A program made the position numbers and the translations under genes. Below the pieces are notes generated by a model that worked only from the letters and a program-made list of their open reading frames with translations, searched no databases and was not told where the DNA came from. From an uncultured Ruminococcus sp. (lineage in GTDB: Bacteria > Bacillota > Clostridia > Oscillospirales > CAG-272), in the NCBI GenBank assembly GCA_964579135.1, contig CAZOFD010000001.1:26063-90062 (forward strand): 64,000 bases of DNA, given 5' to 3'. This document shows positions 22,413 to 32,687 of this stretch, in pieces (the first letter of the stretch is position 1; every line of letters begins with the position of its first letter).

Positions 22413-23654
22413 ATGTTCTTTGAGAGAGTTTCCGAATTTGACCCCGAGGTAGGCGCGTCGCTCGCACGCGAGTTGAATCGCCAAAGGGGAAATATCGAGC
22501 TTATCGCATCCGAAAACATCGTTTCCGAAGCGGTGCTTTTGGCTGCCGGCGGCGTTTTGACCAACAAATACGCCGAGGGTTACCCCGCTCACCGCTACTA
22601 CGGCGGTTGCGAGTTCGTCGACGAGGTCGAAAACGTCGCGCGCGAACGTGCGTGCCGCCTTTTCGGTGCGAAATTCGCCAACGTTCAACCGCACTGCGGT
22701 GCAAACGCAAACCTTGCGGCATTCTTTGCGCTCGTAAAACCGGGCGAGACCGTTCTTTCTATGAATCTCGCGCACGGCGGTCACATCTCTCACGGACTTC
22801 CCGTTAACATCTCGGGAAAATACTTTAATATAGTTCAGTACGGCGTAGACCCGACAAGCGGACTTATAGACTACGACAACGTTCGCCGCCTCGCACTCGA
22901 AAATCGCCCGAAGATGATCATCGCCGGTGCCAGCGCATACCCCCGCGTTATCGATTTTGCGAAATTCCGCGAGATCGCAGACGAGGTCGGAGCGTATCTT
23001 ATGGTCGATATGGCACATATCGCGGGGCTTGTTGCCGCAGGGCTCCACCCCTCGCCCATTCCCCACGCCCACGTTACTACCACGACAACGCACAAAACGC
23101 TTCGCGGTCCGCGCGGCGGTATGATACTGACCAACGACGAAGAACTGGCGAAGAAAATAGACAAAGCCATTTTCCCCGGCACGCAGGGCGGTCCCCTTAT
23201 GCATATCATCGCGGCAAAAGCCGTCGCTCTCGGCGAGGCTTTGACCCCCGAATATAAGCTCTATCAAAAACAGGTAATAAAGAACGCAGCGGCAATGGCG
23301 CAAACGTTGACCGCACGCGGAGTTTCGCTGTTGACGGGCGGCACCGACAACCACCTTATGCTCCTCAACCTTGTTGGCACGCCCGTGACGGGTCGCGACC
23401 TTGAGGTCAAGCTGGACGAGGTGCACATCACGGCAAACAAAAACGCCATCCCGAACGATCCGCTCAAGCCCGCGGTAACGTCCGGCTTGCGTATCGGCTC
23501 GCCCGCCGTTACGACGCGCGGTTTCGACGAAGCCGATTGCTCGCTTGTCGCAAACTTGATAGCAGACGCGATATACGATTTCGACGCGAAAAAAGACGCT
23601 ATCGCCGCAAGCGTAGCCGAGCTTTGCGCGGCTCACCCGATATATAACGCCTAA
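22413..23654 (+). CDS. glyA: Serine hydroxymethyltransferase
   Basis: ..[30 protein letters not shown].., ..[14 protein letters not shown].. (PLP lysine motif). GAGGA RBS. Confidence 0.95.
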
Positions 23655-23662
23655 GGTAAAAA

Positions 23663-23707
23663 CTGCAGGATATCCGCACGAAAATATCGCGGATATCCTG
23701 CGGTTTC
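23663..23707 (+). terminator. glyA terminator (weak U-run)
   Basis: CTGCAGGATATCCGC .. GCGGATATCCTGCGG stem followed by TTTCGCT. Confidence 0.6.
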
Positions 23708-23739
23708 GCTCATATTTCGCTCAAAAAGCGTTTTTTCGC

Positions 23740-23768
23740 TTGACAACGCGAGCAAAAACGATTATAAT
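23740..23768 (+). promoter_or_regulatory. Sigma-A-type promoter for the cobalamin-riboswitch leader
   Basis: TTGACA (23740..23745), 17-nt spacer, TATAAT (23763..23768). Confidence 0.7.
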
Positions 23769-23834
23769 TGCCTTGTTCTGAATCAAGGTCAAACGATTCG
23801 AAACGATTTTAAATCAGATCGTAAAAACAGAATA

Positions 23835-24116
23835 TTTCGCAGTTCGGTTTCGCTTTACGCGAATCAGAGGGAAGTTCGGTGAAAATCCGTCGCAACCGTC
23901 ATTACCGTAATTGGAGTTTTCTTCATAAGTCGGAATACTCACCGAACAAGGCGATGGTCATTCGTGTGGTCACTCTCTTGCGACCGCAAGCGTTTTTGGG
24001 CATGAAAAGCGCAGCCGTTTCTATTTGTGCCAAGGGGTATTGCACCCTTTTGCCGCCTATGGGATAGCTGCGCTTTTTTATCGCTTTTCAGCGTAAAAAA
24101 GCGCATTTTTGTTTTT
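23835..24116 (+). promoter_or_regulatory. Cobalamin (B12) riboswitch with terminator/antiterminator expression platform
   Basis: Aptamer hallmarks: AGAGGGAAG..GGTGAAAATCC (23866..23888), ..CCGTAA.., and a B12-box-like AAGTCGGAATACTCACCG (23927..23944). The terminator stem is TGCGCTTTTTTA/TAAAAAAGCGCA (24069..24105) plus a U-run. GAAAAGCGCAGC (24004..24015) can pair instead with 24067..24077. The boundaries are approximate. Confidence 0.72.
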
Positions 24117-24127
24117 CGGAGGCGACG

Positions 24128-24457
24128 ATGGCAGACAAAACTTTTACAAAAAGCACCTGTATCGAACTTTTGCAAAACAAAAGCGCACAACTTGCAAAGT
24201 CGGGGGACGCGCGCTATCCGCGCCGTTCCGATTTCGGCGAAAGCGAGGTCGCGGCTATAAAAAGCTTTCTCGGTCCGTGGCCGCGCGCACTCGAGGCGGC
24301 TGGCGTTAAATCTTTGCGCGACGACAGCCGTGCAAAAAAAACGAAAGAAAAACGCATCGCCGCAAAACGCGAAAAGACCCGCCGCAAGATCGCGAATATG
24401 CAAAACTCAGGTAGCGAGCTAAAGCAATCTCCGCCTTTCGCAAGCGATGACGATTAG
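24128..24457 (+). CDS. Small basic protein with a homing-endonuclease-associated-repeat (HEAR)-like motif
   Basis: GGAGG RBS 5 nt upstream. The sequence ..YPRRSDFGESEVAAIKSFLGPWPRALEAAGVK.. matches my memory of the HEAR pattern (P..sDF....i...FGsW..AL.aAGl). The tail is Lys/Arg-rich. Confidence 0.6.
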   Translation: MADKTFTKSTCIELLQNKSAQLAKSGDARYPRRSDFGESEVAAIKSFLGPWPRALEAAGVKSLRDDSRAKKTKEKRIAAKREKTRRKIANMQNSGSELKQSPPFASDDD

Positions 24458-24564
24458 CCGATGGCGCCACCGCCGCGCTTGCCCGAATCGCCTTATCTTT
24501 TGAGGCGGAAACTCACCCAATATAAAATATTTGCCCGATCGGCAAATGATAAGGAAAAGAAAAA

Positions 24565-25383
24565 ATGAAAAAGATCATCTCTCTCATCCTCACCGCACTC
24601 ACGGCAATGACCGTCATCGCCTGCGTCGCCGTTCCCTGCGCTGCCGGAAACGAGGCGTTCGTTTACGTTACGATAGTCGACGGAAACGGCAACCTCGCTC
24701 TTACGCAAAAGCAAGTAACCGTTACCGACGTCGATAACGACGGCAAACTTACCGTAAACGACGCTCTTTATTGCGCACACGAGCAAAATTACAGCGGTGG
24801 CGCAAGCGCGGGCTACGCCTCATCGCAAAGCTCCTACGGTCTTTCGCTCGACAAACTTTGGGGCGTGCAGAACGGCGGCGCATACGGATATTACGTTAAC
24901 GACGCTATGGCGATGAGCCTTGCGGACACCGTAACGAACGGCGACTTTATAAACGCTTTCGTATACACCGACACCACCGCGTGGAGTGATACTTATTGCT
25001 TCTTTTCAAGTAGCGTCGCAAGCAGCGTTGCCGGCGGCAAGATACTTCTCACGCTGAACTGCTTGGGATACGACGCACAGTCATCCTCTTTCGTCAATAT
25101 GCCGATCGAGGGCGCGACCATCACCGTTAACGGCGCGGCAACGGAATACAAAACGGATGCAAACGGCTCCGTTTACCTCAAGATAGACAAAGCGGGTACG
25201 TACGTCGTCAGCGCAACGAGCACCTCGAAAAATCTCGTCCCCCCCGTGCTGACCCTCTCCGTTACCGCAGCCGCCCCCGAAACGGGCGACACCGAACTTT
25301 GGATTTTGGCGGCACCGGCGCTTGCCTTGACCGCGCTGCTCGGGGCTGCGTTCGTATATCGTCGCAAGCACGATGAGATCTAA
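24565..25383 (+). CDS. Secreted DUF4430-like protein with Ig-like middle domain and C-terminal sortase-type sorting signal
   Basis: Signal peptide MKKIISLILTALTAMTVIACVAVPCAAG. DUF4430-like region (VYVTIVDG....LTVNDAL......YGLSLDKLWG....GYYVND). The C-terminus is AAPETGD, then a hydrophobic stretch, then RRKHDEI. Confidence 0.7.
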   Translation: MKKIISLILTALTAMTVIACVAVPCAAGNEAFVYVTIVDGNGNLALTQKQVTVTDVDNDGKLTVNDALYCAHEQNYSGGASAGYASSQSSYGLSLDKLWGVQNGGAYGYYVNDAMAMSLADTVTNGDFINAFVYTDTTAWSDTYCFFSSSVASSVAGGKILLTLNCLGYDAQSSSFVNMPIEGATITVNGAATEYKTDANGSVYLKIDKAGTYVVSATSTSKNLVPPVLTLSVTAAAPETGDTELWILAAPALALTALLGAAFVYRRKHDEI

Positions 25384-27127
25384 ACCTTTACGCGCGACGG
25401 CTCTTATTGCCGTCGCGCTGCTTTTACTTTGCCTTTTTCCCGTAACGGGGGCAGCGACGCAAAACGGACAAGCCGAAGCCGAGGCGATATATTCCTCGGT
25501 GCTCGCCTCGCTCGGAGCGGACACAAACAACGTGCAAACGTTTATCGACGAAAAACTTGCCGCCGCGCCGGCAAACGGCTCGGAATGGTACGTTATCGCA
25601 CTTTCGCAAAGCGGAACGTACGACTTTTCGCGCTACGAATCGGCGCTTGTCGCTTACCTTAACTCGGCGACGATATCCTCCGCCTCCTCAAGGCTGAAAT
25701 TCGCGCTTTGCCTTGTCGCCGTCGGCTCCGAAAACGAATATATCCGAAATGCGATAGATTCCTCCGTCGGAAAGCAAGGGATTATGAGTTTGATATTCGG
25801 GCTGCACCTTATAAACAACGGCTATACAGCGGCAGACTATACCGCGCAAGACCTTGCCTTAGAGATCGTCGGCGCGCAACTTGCGGACGGCGGGTGGAGC
25901 GTCGTCGGTCAAGCCGGCGACCCCGACGTCACGGCAATGGCTTTACAAGCCGTCGCCCCGTATTGCGAAAGCAACGCAAGCGTTAAAAGCGCCTCCGAGC
26001 GCGCTGTCGATTTTCTCTCGTCAAAGCAGTTGCCAAGCGGCGATTTTGCCTCTTTCGGCACGCCGAATCCCGAGAGCACCGCGCAAGTTATCATCGCCCT
26101 TGCCTCGCTCGGCATCGACGCGGAAAACGACGCGCGATTTAAAAAGAACGGTACCCCTTTCGACGGGATAAACAAATATCGCCTGCCGAGCGGTGACTTC
26201 GCGCACACCGAGGGCGGCGCGTCCAACGCCAATGCCACTATGCAGGTCTTTTGCGCCTCGGCGGCGTATATACGTTTTTGCCGCGGCTTGTCGCCGTTTT
26301 ATTCGAATCTCGGCAGCAATAATACGAACGGCAACGAGGCGACCGGCGAGCAAACGACCGGCGAGCAAACGACCGCCGACAAAACCGGCGACAACGGCTC
26401 TGCCGCGCTTACCGACGGTGCGGGCGACGACCGCGAGCAAACCGCGCAGCGTGACGGCAACGGCAACGCCTCTTACAAGCCTTATGCCGTATCCGCGATC
26501 GTTTTGGTCGCGTGCGGCGTAGCACTCGGGCTTTTTGTCGCCAAAAAGCGCAAGATCTCGAATTTTGTCGCCGTTATCCTCGTTGCCGCCGCCGCAAGTG
26601 CCGCCGTGCTGCTTACAGACGTACGCACGCCTGAAGATTACTACGGCTCCACCGAGCAAAAAACGGACGTTATCGGCACGGTATCGCTGAGCATAAGGTG
26701 CGACACCGTCGTAGGGCTCGGCGACGCCGTACCGCAAAACGGCATTATTCTCGACACCGTTTACGTGGATATCTCCGAGGGAGACACCGTATTGTCCGTT
26801 TTGACCGAGGCGGCGCGGCGCTGTTCCGTAAGGCTCGACGTCTCGGGCGACGGTGCGCTTGCCTACGTCAACGGCATAGCGTTTCTATACGAATTCGACT
26901 TCGGTCCCCTCTCGGGCTGGACTTACCGAGTGAACGGCGAGATGCCGTCCGTCGGCGCGGGGGCGTACACGCTCGCCGACGGCGACGTGATCGAATGGCT
27001 GTACACAAAGGAACTCGGCTCGGATATTTCACGTTGCCGCGCTGAGCGGGTGCGCTCGCCGTACCGCTTATGTGTTTCGTTAAAAGCGGGAAAATCAGCG
27101 GAGCTTTTCCTATCGGAGCGTGCTTAA
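25373..27127 (+). CDS. Membrane-anchored protein: alpha/alpha-toroid (prenyltransferase/squalene-oxidase-repeat-like) domain, TM hairpin, and C-terminal DUF4430 (transcobalamin-like beta domain)
   Basis: Signal peptide. Repeats QLADGGWS, KQLPSGDFASFG and YRLPSGDFAHTEGG. TGEQT low-complexity linker. Two TM helices flanking KKRKISN (26483..26617). C-terminal ..DISEGDTVLSVL......YVNGI......GPLSGWTYRVNGEMPSVGAGAYTLADGDVIEWLYT. Confidence 0.75.
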   Translation: MRSKPLRATALIAVALLLLCLFPVTGAATQNGQAEAEAIYSSVLASLGADTNNVQTFIDEKLAAAPANGSEWYVIALSQSGTYDFSRYESALVAYLNSATISSASSRLKFALCLVAVGSENEYIRNAIDSSVGKQGIMSLIFGLHLINNGYTAADYTAQDLALEIVGAQLADGGWSVVGQAGDPDVTAMALQAVAPYCESNASVKSASERAVDFLSSKQLPSGDFASFGTPNPESTAQVIIALASLGIDAENDARFKKNGTPFDGINKYRLPSGDFAHTEGGASNANATMQVFCASAAYIRFCRGLSPFYSNLGSNNTNGNEATGEQTTGEQTTADKTGDNGSAALTDGAGDDREQTAQRDGNGNASYKPYAVSAIVLVACGVALGLFVAKKRKISNFVAVILVAAAASAAVLLTDVRTPEDYYGSTEQKTDVIGTVSLSIRCDTVVGLGDAVPQNGIILDTVYVDISEGDTVLSVLTEAARRCSVRLDVSGDGALAYVNGIAFLYEFDFGPLSGWTYRVNGEMPSVGAGAYTLADGDVIEWLYTKELGSDISRCRAERVRSPYRLCVSLKAGKSAELFLSERA

Positions 27128-27128
27128 A

Positions 27129-28007
27129 ATGAGATCTCTCGACAACCTCAACCCCATAACGGCAGCCGTATACTTTACATGTGCAATATGCATACCGACC
27201 TTTTCGCAGAACCCCGTAACGACGCTGACCGCCGTTGCGGCGTCCGCGCTGTACTGCATTATGCGCAAATGCCGCGCACTTCGCTCGACTATGCGTTTTT
27301 GCTTGCTTTTCGTTGTCGTTATGACCGTGCTGAATCCTCTTATTTCGCACAACGGCAAGACCGTGCTCTTCTTTATAAACGATTCGCCCGTTACCGCCGA
27401 AGCGGCGATATACGGTGCGCTGTCGTCACTCGCAGTATCTGCCGTTATCCTCTTTTTCAGAGCACTGTCCGATATCCTTACGCAGGACAAATTGCTCTAC
27501 GTTTTCGGCAAAACCTCGCCGAAGACCGCGCTCGTTTTATCTATGGCTCTGCGCTACTCCTCGCTTTTGCGCGAAAAGGCGCGACAAATCGAGGATAGCC
27601 AGACCGCGCTCGGGCTTTACGAGGACGGTAACGTGGCGGCAACGATCAAAGGTAAAGCGCGTATTTTTTCCGTACTTGTCACGTGGTCGCTCGAAAACGG
27701 GATAACGACCGCCGACTCTATGGCGTCTCGCGGATACGGCAAGCACCGCCGCACGTATTTTTCTTTGTTCGGTTTTTCCGCAAGTGACGCGGCAACACTT
27801 GCTTTTACCGCTGCGTGCACGTCACTTTACGTAGCGGCGGCACTTCGCGGCGACTTGGCTTTCGCTTGTTATCCGAGCATCGCAATATCGCCGCTCACCC
27901 CGCTCGGCGCCGTCGCGTATACGGCATACGCGCTGCTTGCACTGTTTCCCGTGATATCGGAATCCGGAGAAAGGCTCAAATGGAAATACTTAAGGTCGAA
28001 GATCTGA
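27129..28007 (+). CDS. ECF transporter transmembrane (T) component, EcfT/CbiQ family
   Basis: Polytopic membrane protein with the conserved ..ALRYSSLLREKARQIEDSQTALG.. coupling-helix region. The ATG at 27129 is 1 nt after the upstream stop, with GGAG upstream. Confidence 0.8.
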   Translation: MRSLDNLNPITAAVYFTCAICIPTFSQNPVTTLTAVAASALYCIMRKCRALRSTMRFCLLFVVVMTVLNPLISHNGKTVLFFINDSPVTAEAAIYGALSSLAVSAVILFFRALSDILTQDKLLYVFGKTSPKTALVLSMALRYSSLLREKARQIEDSQTALGLYEDGNVAATIKGKARIFSVLVTWSLENGITTADSMASRGYGKHRRTYFSLFGFSASDAATLAFTAACTSLYVAAALRGDLAFACYPSIAISPLTPLGAVAYTAYALLALFPVISESGERLKWKYLRSKI

Positions 28008-29638
28008 CTTTTCAATATCCCTTATCAGAGCGTACCGCCGTTCGCTCCGCGTCGTTTGCCGTAAACTCGGGCGAATTCGTAGTCCTTTGCGGAGCAACTG
28101 GAAGCGGCAAATCGACTTTGCTTCGTTGCTTGAAACCCGAGATCGCGCCGACGGGCACAAAAAGCGGAAATATCGTTTTTCAAAACGCGCCGCTCGACGT
28201 CGGATCCGAACGCATAGGCTTCGTCGCGCAGCGCCCCGATGAGCAAATAGTTACCGACAGAGTGTATTCGGAGCTTGCTTTCGGGCTTGAAAATCTCGGC
28301 ACCCCGAGCGACGTCATCGCTCGCAAGATCGCGGAGATATCCGCGTTTTTCGGCATAGAAGATTGGTTTGAGCGCGACGTCGCAACACTCTCGGGCGGGC
28401 AAAAGCAACTTTTGAATCTCGCCGCGGTAACGGTCACGGAGCCCGATCTCATACTCCTCGACGAGCCGACCTCGATGCTCGACCCCATCGCGGCAAGCGA
28501 CTTTATATCGATGCTGAAAAAGCTGAATCGCGAACTTTCCCTGACCGTCGTTATCGCGGAGCACAGAACGGAAGACGCCGTCGCCGCTTGCGACAGAATA
28601 ATCTTTATGGCAAACGGCGCCATCGTCGCCGACGGCGATCCGCAAACGATTGCCGCGGTGGGCGGCGATATATTGCCGTTTATGCCGGCGGCAACGCGGC
28701 TCTATCATATGGTCGGCGGCACGGGCGCGTGCCCCGTAGATGTGCGCGACGGCAAACGATTCGCGGCACGCTTCGCCCCGCAGACCGAATACGAAACGAA
28801 AAAAAACAAAGGCGCGAGCACAAACGATACGGTCGCGCCAAAAAAGAGAAAGCGCGATATCGCCGAAGCCGCGCTCGAATTTAACGACGTATACTTTAAA
28901 TACGACAGAAAATCCGACGACGTACTCTCCGCGCTCGAGCTTTCGATATACGAAAACGAGATATTTTGCCTGCTCGGAGGCAACGGCTCGGGCAAATCCA
29001 CACTGCTCTCCTGCGCGTGCGGATTGCGCAAGCCGTACGGCGGCAACGTTCGCGTTTTCGGCAAAAAGATATCCGACTACCGCGGCGGAGAACTGTATTC
29101 GGGGTGTGTATCGCTTCTTCCGCAAGACGTTCAAACGCTTTTTTTGCGTGCAAGTGTGCGCGAGGAGCTCGAAGACGCGTACGAAAGCGCCGCCGATTCT
29201 CCGATCGATCTCTCGCCCCTCTTCGAAAAGCACCCGTACGATCTGTCGGGCGGCGAGCAACAACTCCTCGCATTGGCAAAGGTGCTGTCGCGCAAACCGC
29301 GCCTGCTCCTTATGGACGAGCCGACGAAAGGGCTCGATCCACGCAGAAAGGACGAACTGAGGCAGATAATAAAAGATCTCAGAGCACACGGAACAACGAT
29401 CTTGGCAGTCACTCACGACGTCGAGTTCGCCGCGAGCACGGCTGACCGTTGCGCCATACTTTTCCGCGGCAAGGCGCTCGGCACGGCAACGCCACGCGAT
29501 TTCTTCTCTTACGGCAGTTTTTATACCACTGCGGCTGCCCGTATGGCGCGCGGATATTTCGAGGGGGTGGCGACCACCGAAGACCTTGCCGCCGCGTGCC
29601 TAAAAAGCCTTGAGATAGCGGAGGCGGCAACAAAATGA
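27980..29638 (+). CDS. Fused tandem ECF/ABC ATPase (EcfA-EcfA')
   Basis: Two complete ABC cassettes. The first has GATGSGKSTL / LSGGQKQ / LILLDEPTSMLD; the second has GGNGSGKSTL / LSGGEQQ / LLLMDEPTKGLD. The start at 27980 (MEILKVEDLTF) overlaps ecfT by 28 nt. Confidence 0.88.
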   Translation: MEILKVEDLTFQYPLSERTAVRSASFAVNSGEFVVLCGATGSGKSTLLRCLKPEIAPTGTKSGNIVFQNAPLDVGSERIGFVAQRPDEQIVTDRVYSELAFGLENLGTPSDVIARKIAEISAFFGIEDWFERDVATLSGGQKQLLNLAAVTVTEPDLILLDEPTSMLDPIAASDFISMLKKLNRELSLTVVIAEHRTEDAVAACDRIIFMANGAIVADGDPQTIAAVGGDILPFMPAATRLYHMVGGTGACPVDVRDGKRFAARFAPQTEYETKKNKGASTNDTVAPKKRKRDIAEAALEFNDVYFKYDRKSDDVLSALELSIYENEIFCLLGGNGSGKSTLLSCACGLRKPYGGNVRVFGKKISDYRGGELYSGCVSLLPQDVQTLFLRASVREELEDAYESAADSPIDLSPLFEKHPYDLSGGEQQLLALAKVLSRKPRLLLMDEPTKGLDPRRKDELRQIIKDLRAHGTTILAVTHDVEFAASTADRCAILFRGKALGTATPRDFFSYGSFYTTAAARMARGYFEGVATTEDLAAACLKSLEIAEAATK

Positions 29639-30321
29639 AAACGATAAAAAACGCCAAAATTCGCCGCGCGATAAAAATAATCGTACCGTTATTCGCCATC
29701 CCCACGCTCGTTCTGGCAAGCGCAAAGGCGACGGGCGAAAGGGTAGCGCTTTTCACCTCGTGCGCAGTAGCCGCGCTTACCGTTCCTCTTTTCGTCGCCG
29801 GCGTCGAAAAGGCGGAATTCGGCACACGGCGCACCGTTATCGTGGCGATATTGACAGCTCTCGCCTCGTTCGGCAGGCTGATACCGTTCTTTAAGCCGGT
29901 AACGGCTATCGCCACCATCGCGGGGATACATTTGGGGGCGGAATCCGGATTTGCGGTAGGAGCTTTTTCGGCGCTGATATCGGATTTTTATTTCGGTTTG
30001 GGTCCTTGGACGCCGTTCCAAATGCTTGCTTGGGGCGTAATAGGCTTTTTTGCCGGGGTATTGTCCTCGCCGCTCGGGCGCAGCCGCGTTATGCGTACGT
30101 TTTACGGAGTCGTCTCGGGGGTAGCCTTTTCGCTGATAACGGACGTATGGACCGTAACTTGGTACAACGGCACGTTCAGCGCGTCGCTGTACCTTGCCGC
30201 AACGATAACCGCGCTACCTCACACGATTTTGTACGCGGTGTCGAATCTTTTGTTTCTCGCGCTGCTGTCAAAACCGTTCGGCGAAAAGCTCGAGCGCGTC
30301 AAGATCAAATACGGCGTTTAA
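29635..30321 (+). CDS. ECF transporter substrate-specific (S) component; putative corrinoid-specific, from operon context only
   Basis: About 228 aa, six predicted TM helices, ATGA overlap with the ATPase. The specificity is inferred from the riboswitch, not from sequence. Confidence 0.65.
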   Translation: MKTIKNAKIRRAIKIIVPLFAIPTLVLASAKATGERVALFTSCAVAALTVPLFVAGVEKAEFGTRRTVIVAILTALASFGRLIPFFKPVTAIATIAGIHLGAESGFAVGAFSALISDFYFGLGPWTPFQMLAWGVIGFFAGVLSSPLGRSRVMRTFYGVVSGVAFSLITDVWTVTWYNGTFSASLYLAATITALPHTILYAVSNLLFLALLSKPFGEKLERVKIKYGV

Positions 30322-30376
30322 CGCCGCGCTTTACCTCCTCGGCAAGTATGCGAAGGCAAGCTTTAAAACAAAAATC

Positions 30377-30401
30377 GGGGGGCAGACCTTGTCTGCCCCC
30401 C
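30377..30401. terminator. Stem-loop terminator between convergent operons (U-run on the minus strand)
   Basis: GGGGGGCAGAC CTT GTCTGCCCCCC. On the minus strand it is followed by GATTTTTGTTTT. Confidence 0.8.
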
Positions 30402-30413
30402 TAAATTACGGCA

Positions 30414-30968
30414 TTATTTGCCGAAATATCTGTTAAGAAGCCCCTCGAACGCTTTGCCGTGGCGTGCTTCGTCCCTTGCCATTTCGTGTACGGTATCGTG
30501 GATCGCGTCAAGCGAGTGCTCTTTCGCGAGTTTTGCAAGCTCGAACTTGCCTGCGGTAGCACCGTTTTCGGCTGCGACGCGCGCCTTAAGGTTCGCCTCG
30601 GTGGAAGCGGAAACGCACTCGCCGAGAAGTTCGGCGAATTTTGCCGCGTGCTCTGCTTCCTCAAGAGCAGCCTCTTTCCAATAAAGTGCGATCTCGGGAT
30701 ATCCCTCTCTTGCCGCAGCGCGCGACATAGCAAGGTACATTCCGACCTCGGAGCACTCACCCTCGAAGTTAGCGCGAAGTCCCTCGATAATCTCCGCGGG
30801 CGCTCCCTTTGCAACGCCGATAACGTGCTCGGCAGCCCAATCGAGAGCCGCGCCGTCATCGACGACCTCAACGAACTTTTCTCCGGGTTGCTTGCAACGC
30901 GGGCAAATATCGGGGCGAACGTCGGACTCGACTATTTCTCCGCAAACGGTGCATCTCCATTTTTTCAT
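30414..30968 (-). CDS. Reverse rubrerythrin (N-terminal rubredoxin-like domain, C-terminal diiron ferritin-like domain)
   Basis: [13 protein letters not shown]....CPRCK at the N-terminus, then EGE..E..Y and E..H diiron ligand motifs. AAGGAG RBS. Confidence 0.85.
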
Positions 30969-31523: not shown

Positions 31524-32687
31524 TTAAAATTTTAAATATTTGATAAAATCGGTTTCGAATCCGCAGCTTTCCGTTAAAAGTACCGTGTGCACGTCCCTTA
31601 TAAAACCGAAAAGATCTCCTCTCCGCTCTTCCCCCGCACACAGCACGTCGCGCGCACCGGCAAGCGACGTATTGCCGCAAACAACTACGTTTTTATCCGC
31701 AAGGCTCGGTAATACTCCGAGATATTCGAGATCTGCGGCATCGATACCGTCGCCGAAACTTCCGCAAATATATACGTCTCGCACGTCATCCCCGACGGCT
31801 TCCAATGCGCAACGCACCGCGGATTTCGCAAGCTGAAACGCCCGAACGTCCGCCTGCGAAACGTACACGTTCTCCGTCAGATAAAATCTTCCGTCGCGCA
31901 AGCGTACCTGTGCCGCCTCGCCGACAAAAGCGCCGTTATCGTCAAGTGCCCCGATGCGCCGCAATGCGGCAAAGGCACCGACAAGTCCGCTGCCGCATAT
32001 CCCGCGCGGTCTTTCGCCGCCGACGACGCGAGGCACAAGGCGCGCGCCAACCTGCTCGACGCGATATATCGCGCCCGGGGCATATCGCATACCGCATTCC
32101 ACCCCACCGCCCTCAAAGGCGGGACCCGCCGCCGCACTTGCCGCCGTCATACGCCCACCCGAAACGGAAACCGCCTCGCCGTTCGTTCCGAGATCGAGCA
32201 TAAGCGCGCTGTCTTTGCGTTGCATACCGAGCGATACCACCCCGGCGGTGACGTCCCCGCCGACAAACGAGGATATCGGCGGCAGCAAAAAGACGCTGTT
32301 CGCGTTTATACCGATCTCGTCCCCGCCGAACTCCGATTTATTCGGCAAAACGGACGCATAAGGATACGTGCCGAGGGAAAGCGGAGATACGCCGCACAAA
32401 AAATGCAGCATAACCGTATTCGCGGCAATAACGACTCGTTGCGGAGATACGCCGCAGGTCGTCTCGCAAAGCTCGTTAACGGCGGAACGCAAACACGCCG
32501 TCAGCTCCGCAAGATGCTCTTGCGACGCGGCAATACGTGACATAACGTCCGCTCCGAAACGAGCTTGCGGATTTGCGACAGCCGCCGATGCCACGTTTTC
32601 GCCCGTCCCGAGATCCACGCACTCGCACACGATCGTCGTAGTGCCGACGTCAATCGCCGCGCCGATATTTTCGCGTTTTTCCGCCAT
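31524..32687 (-). CDS. ASKHA-fold ATPase of the DUF4445 / RACo (corrinoid reductive activase) C-terminal type, lacking an N-terminal ferredoxin domain
   Basis: Phosphate-1 motif AIDVGTTTIV and the RACo-like LMLDLGTNGEAV motif. At 387 aa it starts directly with the ASKHA domain. Confidence 0.65.
   Translation of the reverse strand: MAEKRENIGAAIDVGTTTIVCECVDLGTGENVASAAVANPQARFGADVMSRIAASQEHLAELTACLRSAVNELCETTCGVSPQRVVIAANTVMLHFLCGVSPLSLGTYPYASVLPNKSEFGGDEIGINANSVFLLPPISSFVGGDVTAGVVSLGMQRKDSALMLDLGTNGEAVSVSGGRMTAASAAAGPAFEGGGVECGMRYAPGAIYRVEQVGARLVPRVVGGERPRGICGSGLVGAFAALRRIGALDDNGAFVGEAAQVRLRDGRFYLTENVYVSQADVRAFQLAKSAVRCALEAVGDDVRDVYICGSFGDGIDAADLEYLGVLPSLADKNVVVCGNTSLAGARDVLCAGEERRGDLFGFIRDVHTVLLTESCGFETDFIKYLKF

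Follow-up and report, generated by a model that had tools for sequence, protein, structure and literature searches.

A cobalamin-riboswitch operon that links a transcobalamin-like ectoprotein with a CbrT-type importer in an uncultured Ruminococcus

Introduction

How might a Gram-positive gut bacterium capture a corrinoid at its surface before an importer carries it across the membrane, and could it do so with a protein that is built like the B12 carriers of animals? The question is raised by a 64,000-nucleotide stretch of DNA, here called the window, from an uncultured Ruminococcus sp. (contig CAZOFD010000001.1, positions 26,063 to 90,062). Between positions 23740 and 30321 of the window a cobalamin riboswitch is followed by six open reading frames (ORFs), ORF1 to ORF6, of which the last three resemble an energy-coupling factor (ECF) importer for B12 and the third encodes an ectoprotein with the two-domain layout of transcobalamin. 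To our knowledge ECF importers, as the textbooks describe them, need no extracytoplasmic binding protein, since binding is the task of the S component within the membrane. We consider it rather probable that the whole set constitutes a B12-repressed, six-gene operon for corrinoid uptake.

Two of its parts, the riboswitch and the CbrVUT-type importer, are of kinds that are already known; the novelty lies in the transcobalamin-like ectoprotein encoded alongside the importer. In the literature searched, which left out most subscription journals, the architecture of this ectoprotein is not described and no bacterial function is assigned to DUF4430, the domain at the end of the ectoprotein, while the paper on ECF-CbrT mentions transcobalamin in its reference list only (PMC5997447). 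An earlier note on this DNA had remarked that a surface tier of this sort had not been characterised in Gram-positive bacteria. That remark fits the literature searched, with the qualification that an accessory gene, cbrS, has already been named beside cbrT in the L. delbrueckii cluster (PMC5997447), so that an accessory component is not wholly new.

A transcobalamin-like ectoprotein

ORF3 (25373..27127, plus strand) encodes the transcobalamin-like ectoprotein, in which a signal peptide is followed by an alpha/alpha toroid (about residues 30-310), a linker that contains a transmembrane (TM) hairpin, and a DUF4430 beta-domain (about residues 430-546). Pfam DUF4430 (PF14478) matches residues 470-546 with E = 6.1e-16 and 59.1 bits against a cut-off of 23.8, and the same match is found in all 27 of the 27 family members; for ORF3 this bears out the presence of DUF4430 that had been suggested for the upstream proteins. 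The N-terminal half gives a weak match to Pfam SQHop_cyclase (19.1 bits, cut-off 26.1). Within the linker, which is conserved in the family, residues 316-365 are disordered and are followed by two TM helices (369-389 and 395-414) with a KKRK loop between them. Given the N-terminal signal peptide and the two-helix hairpin, both globular domains are predicted on topological grounds to face outward. The cytoplasmic loop between the helices is near-invariant, reading KKRK in the window and L-K-K-R-N-x-K-N in the family consensus (26486..26503, residues ~372-377 onward), and its conservation exceeds the need of a passive anchor.

How far does the resemblance to the animal carriers go? An AlphaFold model of ORF3, built from 27 sequences, has a predicted local distance difference test (pLDDT) score above 90 in the toroid, of about 90 in the hairpin and of about 85 in the beta-domain. 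When this model is compared with the PDB by Foldseek, each of the top 15 matches is to transcobalamin, haptocorrin or intrinsic factor (E 1.3e-07 to 1.9e-05), and since the alignments extend over 537-569 columns both domains match the B12 carriers in the same order. Terpene cyclases and prenyltransferases come next in the list with alignments of ~280-330 columns that cover the toroid only, and GH88, GH105 and prenyltransferase beta subunits are also among the matches. The isolated transcobalamin beta-domain 5no0 gives a TMt of 0.76 against the model and the Ruminococcus gnavus DUF4430 protein 3u7z one of 0.68. The earlier note had anticipated a structural likeness for domains; in the model it takes in complete chains of transcobalamin, haptocorrin and intrinsic factor, and so exceeds the note's claim. 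A search of PDB sequences returns nothing with full-length ORF3 and chance matches only with the beta-domain. As judged from the model, then, ORF3 is transcobalamin-like in architecture and fold, and it is not filed here as a member of that family; for the likeness of the modelled toroid to the animal carriers, common descent and convergence are both possible.

A dedicated B12 importer

What would such an ectoprotein serve? Immediately downstream, and likewise on the plus strand, ORF4 (27129..28007) encodes a T component of the CbrV type (Pfam CbiQ, E = 1.1e-11), ORF5 (27980..29638) a fused double ATPase A-A' of the CbrU type, with two ABC_tran domains and a match of 304 bits to ECF_ATPase TIGR04520, and ORF6 (29635..30321) an S component of the CbrT family. 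The sole PDB sequence match of ORF6 at E <=0.001 is 6FNP_A (3.9e-05 for ORF6 by itself, 5.8e-08 when a small profile is used), and the runner-up among S components stands at E 0.11. The entry 6FNP is the ECF-CbrT of L. delbrueckii, which transports both cobalamin and cobinamide (PMC5997447). All three proteins are moreover homologous over their full lengths to the products of the T, ATPase and S genes of the L. plantarum plasmid pMF1298-5, which have been named CbrV, CbrU and CbrT (PMC6722938): ORF4 shares 26% identity with the T component (E = 3e-22), ORF5 35% over its full length with the ATPase (E = 1e-109) and ORF6 31% with the S component (E = 6e-19).

Going by these homologies, ORF4-6 are a dedicated ECF importer of the CbrV/CbrU/CbrT type, as had been proposed for the last three genes, and the substrate is probably cobalamin and probably also cobinamide. 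In four related loci the ATPase frame is drawn out to ~2.5 kb and there is no separate match to an S component (L044 6498..9008; L049 11041..13662; L051 10124..12634; L057 11074..13728), and these long frames may represent A-A'-S fusions.

The riboswitch leader

Is the leader in front of these genes a genuine cobalamin riboswitch? It is preceded by a sigma-70-type promoter, TTGACA-17-TATAAT (23740..23768, plus strand), which agrees with the consensus at 12 of 12 positions and is the sole perfect match within 23500..30700. The compact cobalamin aptamer at 23828..23960 (plus strand), with a peripheral extension of ~9 nucleotides (nt), aligns end to end with Rfam RF00174 Cobalamin (model positions 1-189) at 30.4 bits and E = 1e-05 in a search of 951 nt. 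The conserved core, comprising the GGGAA..GGUGAAAAUCC junction and the B12-box region, is matched over its full length together with the consensus helices, and the aptamer motifs AGAGGGAAG..GGTGAAAATCC and AAGTCGGAATACTCACCG lie at 23866..23888 and 23927..23944, respectively. The gathering score of RF00174 (clan CL00101) is 31.5, which leaves the aptamer 1.1 bits short because its peripheral extension has 9 nt compared with 62 in the model. This shortfall, and not an absence of the aptamer, explains why an Rfam scan of the whole window at gathering thresholds gives no match. The expected Rfam hit is thus present over the full model, at a score slightly under the family threshold.

In the expression platform GAAAAGCGCAGC spans 24004..24015 and supplies one strand of a predicted 11-bp anti-terminator helix (24005..24015 with 24067..24077) that closes a long hairpin (24005..24077, plus strand). 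This helix competes with an intrinsic terminator (24069..24116, plus strand), in which a perfect 12-bp stem (24069..24080 with 24094..24105) is followed by a TTTTTGTTTTT tail and whose hairpin amounts to -20.3 kcal/mol. In folds of 23961..24118 the two states are near-isoenergetic, with -57.2 kcal/mol for the terminator against -56.9 kcal/mol for the enforced anti-terminator, and with the transcript folded only to 24080 the anti-terminator is the minimum-free-energy structure. The minimum-free-energy fold of 23961..24118 also holds a predicted anti-anti-terminator hairpin (23990..24012, plus strand), which sequesters the 5' strand of the anti-terminator in the terminator fold. Promoter, aptamer motifs and the competition between the 11-bp pairing and the perfect terminator stem with its U-run are all found where the earlier note had placed them.

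The leader is also not alone. Within a set of 81 related loci, the same compact aptamer precedes two orthologous operons with 40.1 bits (L001) and 32.4 bits (L003), and aptamers above the Rfam gathering score are found in other loci too (L083, 88.1 bits; L027, 64.6 bits; L009, 60.6 bits). A custom covariance model, built from three sequences, namely the window aptamer and its two orthologs, finds an aptamer ahead of the cluster, on the coding strand, in 69 of the 81 loci; Rfam at its gathering score adds a further 4, among them one of the AdoCbl-II class. A cobalamin aptamer or clan relative thus precedes the cluster in at least 73 loci, and of those without an aptamer at least one ends at a contig edge. 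Across 74 distinct aptamer sequences 91% of cells are paired and compensatory changes occur in 20 of 29 pairs, compared with 28-52% of cells when the partners are slid by 1-3 columns, figures that are somewhat favoured by the fitting of the alignment to the model. A hairpin of -15 kcal/mol or stronger with a T-run lies within 250 nt of the aptamer in 73 of 80 cases, whereas just 6.6% of random segments drawn from these loci have one, a threshold of -9 kcal/mol having been dropped as too lenient, with 35% of random segments passing it. Where the cluster is split into ORF2-ORF3 and ORF1-T-AA halves (L044, L046, L049, L051, L056, L057) a riboswitch precedes each half, which ties each of them to B12 on its own account. 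In one locus (L068, 866..945) an AdoCbl-II aptamer (RF01689, 36.9 bits) replaces the classical cobalamin aptamer before the same operon. The Rfam match, the aptamers of the orthologs, the covariation and the competing folds all point the same way: the window leader is a real cobalamin riboswitch with a termination platform, as first proposed, and we infer the direction of its B12-dependent regulation.

Operon layout and companion proteins

All six genes are on the plus strand downstream of the leader, and the later ones are tightly packed. ORF2 and ORF3 overlap by 11 nt (25373..25383), the ATG of ORF4 at 27129 comes one base after the stop of ORF3, which ends at 27127, ORF4 and ORF5 overlap by 28 nt (27980..28007), and ORF5 and ORF6 share an ATGA overlap (29635..29638). 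All four junctions are exactly as previously reported, and the expected recurrence of the gene order downstream of B12 riboswitches in related genomes is also seen. The gene boundaries are identical to the NCBI calls on the source contig for five of the six genes, the exception being ORF3, for which NCBI (P0001, 542 aa) begins at V43, 42 codons later and without a signal peptide. The NCBI start drops a signal peptide that the homologs keep, and translation more likely begins at the ATG at 25373.

ORF2 (24565..25383, plus strand) is predicted to be a secreted, sortase-anchored wall protein with a signal peptide and a PxTG sorting signal. Its layout, in a model with a pLDDT of 88.8 (AlphaFold), is that of a signal peptide, an N-terminal domain without a family match, a transthyretin/immunoglobulin (Ig)-like beta-sandwich and a C-terminus made of APETG, a TM segment and RRK. 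The C-terminal sequence reads APETGD, TM segment and RRKHDEI, and the pattern P-x-T-G-D, TM segment and KK is kept across 34 homologs, one of which has been named LPXTG-anchored by the Joint Genome Institute. Among these 34 homologs Pfam Gram_pos_anchor is matched in 13, EF-hand in 5 and DUF4430 in none. In the N-terminal domain the loop DVDNDGKLTVND (residues 55-66, window 24727..24762) fits the DxDxDGxLxxxD calcium pattern of EF-hands and dockerins, with Asp and Gly positions that are fully or almost fully conserved among the 34 homologs. In one homolog, P0204, a C-terminal dockerin replaces the PxTG anchor and implies that this protein is attached to a cellulosome scaffold. Despite the permutations of the operon, ORF2 lies directly upstream of ORF3 in all 81 of 81 loci.

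Is ORF2 then a second transcobalamin-like protein? By eye it resembles DUF4430 in the order of its secondary structures and in a Y-x-VN..GD-x-I..Y-T motif, and the likeness failed three tests: DUF4430 is matched in 0 of 34 homologs, a profile-profile comparison with the ORF3 beta-domain was negative, and no transcobalamin or DUF4430 chain is present among its 50 listed fold matches, which are mostly Ig-like domains. The candidate was therefore rejected, and of the two transcobalamin-like surface proteins that the earlier note had proposed one, ORF3, stands and the other falls.

ORF1 (24128..24457, plus strand) is a small protein of 109 aa that is predicted to be cytoplasmic, with one HNH_repeat-like motif (25.1 bits against Pfam PF18780, HNH_repeat, for which the cut-off is 26) and a basic tail. 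Its ATG is preceded, 5 nt upstream, by GGAGG, and 37 operon-linked homologs all have the core IKAFLGPWPRALEAAGLK unchanged. The gene comes first behind the riboswitch or, in permuted operons, stands directly before the T gene. The earlier note had counted it among the three upstream proteins and had not discussed it further; it has no signal peptide.

Beyond ORF6 a GC-rich hairpin, GGGGGGCAGACCTTGTCTGCCCCCC (30377..30401, no strand assigned), separates ORF6 from the convergent rubrerythrin gene and is the probable end of the operon. It is a strong hairpin, a clear terminator for the rubrerythrin gene and a possible one for the operon, termination on the plus strand being uncertain because the T-run is on the minus strand only. 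Some 1.2 kb downstream of the operon, at 31524..32687 (minus strand), is a gene for a protein like the RACo-type corrinoid-protein activases, with no domains other than the middle (E = 2e-40) and ASKHA (E = 8e-49) ones. It hints at corrinoid-dependent methyltransferases in the organism and is not kept beside the operon in relatives. With the exception of this gene, no B12-dependent enzymes were found elsewhere in the window among 20 proteins scanned.

Distribution, split forms and fused forms

The ORF3 family is represented in at least 537 species-level genomes, nearly all from rumen or gut Clostridia and including cultured Ruminococcus flavefaciens strains, and amounts to 4,326 clusters at 50% identity (E <=1e-30, in a library of 1.84 billion representatives). 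Publicly, its members are named 'DUF4430 domain-containing protein' or 'hypothetical protein'. The ORF3 profile finds 6 separate stretches in P0459 (2179 aa) and 4 in P0489 (1733 aa), two giant relatives that from their sequences appear to carry several toroid/DUF4430 copies per chain.

In Lactobacillales the halves of ORF3 come apart. Latilactobacillus curvatus has, in this order, an LPXTG protein, a DUF4430 protein, T, AA and S, and in pMF1298-5 CbrV-CbrU-CbrT are followed by a 'fucose-binding lectin II' gene and then a DUF4430 gene. The L. curvatus LPXTG protein and the plasmid 'lectin' both align with the ORF3 toroid in hhalign (98%, E = 1.4e-13, and 94%, E = 2e-07, respectively), and the L. 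curvatus DUF4430 protein shares 44% identity with the ORF3 beta-domain (E = 5.9e-24). The RefSeq name 'fucose-binding lectin II' at L085 7641..8693 (NZ_CP013155.2 29455..30507) looks like a misannotation, and a Pfam search with this protein gives no match. By sequence comparison, therefore, toroid and beta-domain homologs are encoded by separate adjacent genes in Lactobacillales and in one chain in the Clostridia family, and as the halves adjoin cbrVUT in L. curvatus and in pMF1298-5 the association spans Clostridia and Lactobacillales. The TM hairpin of ORF3 sits where the C-terminal anchor of the first protein and the N-terminal anchor of the second would meet, and would have arisen by fusion.

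Other DUF4430 genes keep similar company. The L. delbrueckii cluster has the order nrdJ-cbrS-cbrT-pduO (PMC5997447), and in L. rhamnosus a DUF4430 protein 'of unknown function', LGG_02295, adjoins rtpR (PMC9963975). Putting the two papers together, the L. delbrueckii cbrS is probably a DUF4430 gene, given its place in the cluster and the DUF4430 protein beside rtpR in L. rhamnosus.

Proposed function and its alternatives

How, then, might the operon work? At low B12 the nascent leader would form the anti-terminator and the six genes would be transcribed, whereas with B12 on the aptamer the hairpin at 23990..24012 would trap the 5' strand of the anti-terminator, the 12-bp terminator would form and transcription would end before ORF1. 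ORF3 would be exported, with toroid and beta-domain outward and the hairpin pinning the protein to the membrane, and, if it worked as transcobalamin does, a single corrinoid would be enclosed between the two domains and passed on to the S component. ORF2, whose translation is coupled to that of ORF3 and which sortase would fix to the peptidoglycan, might have its place farther out in the wall, either binding first or assisting ORF3, which is the weakest step of the scheme. Corrinoid capture and hand-off to the importer thus appears to be the best-supported function, by an analogy that draws on fold, topology and conserved linkage. A stronger claim, that members of the ORF3 family are true two-domain bacterial relatives of the animal carriers, binding corrinoids outside the cell and feeding the ECF transporter, we advance tentatively, as possible rather than probable.

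Several observations weigh against capture and hand-off. In sequence the toroid resembles terpene cyclases and prenyltransferases, so that its link with transcobalamin is one of fold and architecture: the profile of the toroid family finds class II terpene cyclases only in the PDB (E ~3e-07), and Pfam Cobalamin_bind (PF01122) is matched neither in ORF3 nor among the 25 most-matched families of the 27 members (E <=1). Residue H145 is invariant in 27 aligned ORF3 relatives, yet stands opposite an alanine in the L. curvatus homolog (hhalign). Neither fold, profile nor Pfam comparisons connect ORF2 with any B12 binder. The missing 1.1 bits of the aptamer count here as well, as does the failure to detect a riboswitch in the two Lactobacillales loci, L. 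curvatus and pMF1298-5. Finally, ECF-CbrT transports in proteoliposomes without an accessory protein and S components bind at nanomolar concentrations (PMC5997447), from which it follows that a hand-off tier is not required for transport.

Could these observations be better explained in another way? The sub-threshold aptamer score and the empty default scan would be expected if the leader were a degenerate riboswitch or a chance look-alike and B12 did not regulate the operon, and this can be set aside as highly improbable in the face of a match to the full model, near-identical cores that exceed the gathering score in orthologs, an aptamer with covariation in at least 73 of the 81 loci, and a conserved terminator with an 11-bp competing helix after the aptamer. 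A little more room, although not much, can be given to the idea that ORF3 binds no corrinoid, its toroid being an enzyme like the terpene cyclases, prenyltransferases or glycosidases, or a carbohydrate binder, on the envelope, with the B12 control reflecting some other need. The terpene-cyclase profile matches together with Pfam SQHop_cyclase and Prenyltrans, the GH88, GH105 and prenyltransferase beta subunit folds, and the RefSeq lectin name of the plasmid toroid homolog all lean that way. Yet the best fold matches of ORF3 are B12 carriers, which alone cover both domains, the toroid is always joined to or beside DUF4430, the family of the transcobalamin beta-domain, and the association with CbrT-type importers and with B12 riboswitches is pervasive. 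Class II terpene cyclases have a catalytic DxDD motif, and at this position ORF3 reads D183-P-D185-V186; its toroid is moreover predicted to be extracytoplasmic, away from prenyl diphosphate substrates.

The alternative that deserves most attention, unlikely as we take it to be, is that ORF2 and ORF3 do bind corrinoids, and do so to hoard them, withhold them from competitors or store them, while uptake through ORF4-6 proceeds independently. The BtuG-type surface B12 binders of Bacteroides are generally discussed as competitive tools, the carriers of the present operon inhabit dense rumen and gut communities, and for transport as such ECF-CbrT alone suffices in proteoliposomes (PMC5997447). What such independence would leave unexplained is the linkage of ORF2-ORF3 to the importer in nearly all loci, in two bacterial classes and with frames that often overlap, and a conserved hairpin by which ORF3 is pinned to the membrane, the very site of the importer. 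Both features are consistent with capture by ORF3 and hand-off to ORF4-6.

Comparison with known systems

The closest counterparts of ORF4-6 are ECF-CbrT and CbrVUT, to which the T, ATPase and S components are homologous, and as on pMF1298-5 there is a fused double ATPase and a dedicated module; on that plasmid, too, a toroid gene and a DUF4430 gene adjoin cbrVUT. In L. delbrueckii, by contrast, CbrT shares the general ECF module (group II) (PMC5997447), whereas the window S component has a module of its own. The window also differs from the Lactobacillales clusters in that toroid and DUF4430 are fused through the TM hairpin and in having ORF1, ORF2 and the riboswitch. Stand-alone DUF4430 proteins (3U7Z, LGG_02295 and probably cbrS) have the same beta-domain and adjoin B12-dependent or B12-transport genes (PMC9963975, PMC5997447), but unlike ORF3 they are single-domain or short and are stated to be of unknown function.

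With the animal carriers transcobalamin, haptocorrin and intrinsic factor (PDB 2BB5, 4KKI, 2PMV) ORF3 shares a toroid followed by a small DUF4430 beta-domain. It differs from them in sequence, with 9-12% identity and without the Cobalamin_bind match, and in location, since the animal proteins are soluble and ORF3 is tethered to the membrane by a linker of ~100 residues with two TM helices. The window couples the whole architecture of an animal B12 carrier genetically to a B12 ECF importer, under a B12 riboswitch and in Firmicutes of the rumen and gut, where scarce corrinoids are an object of competition. Were ORF3 to bind B12, a missing capture step would be added to Gram-positive B12 uptake, and the origin of the transcobalamin fold would become a testable question. 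If the stronger claim made above held, no ECF importer before this one would be known to cooperate with an extracytoplasmic binding protein, and the architecture of the animal B12 carriers would have originated in bacteria. Cultured Ruminococcus flavefaciens strains that carry the operon, represented by loci L050, L054, L065 and L066, and annotated Lactobacillales plasmids make experiments feasible.

The most instructive comparison is with the Bacteroides. There BtuG, a beta-propeller, works with a TonB-dependent outer-membrane transporter, and the lipoproteins BtuG and BtuH feed BtuB; these are proteins of gut bacteria that capture B12 at the surface ahead of a transporter, under the control of B12 riboswitches. 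Neither BtuG nor BtuH is among the 50 listed fold matches of the ORF3 or ORF2 model, and both the folds and the transporter are unrelated, the window having a toroid with a beta-domain, an ECF importer and a Gram-positive envelope. The likeness is thus one of proposed role: by analogy, ORF3 would provide high-affinity extracytoplasmic capture before the transporter and, if it does bind B12, would be the Gram-positive counterpart of Bacteroides BtuG and BtuH.

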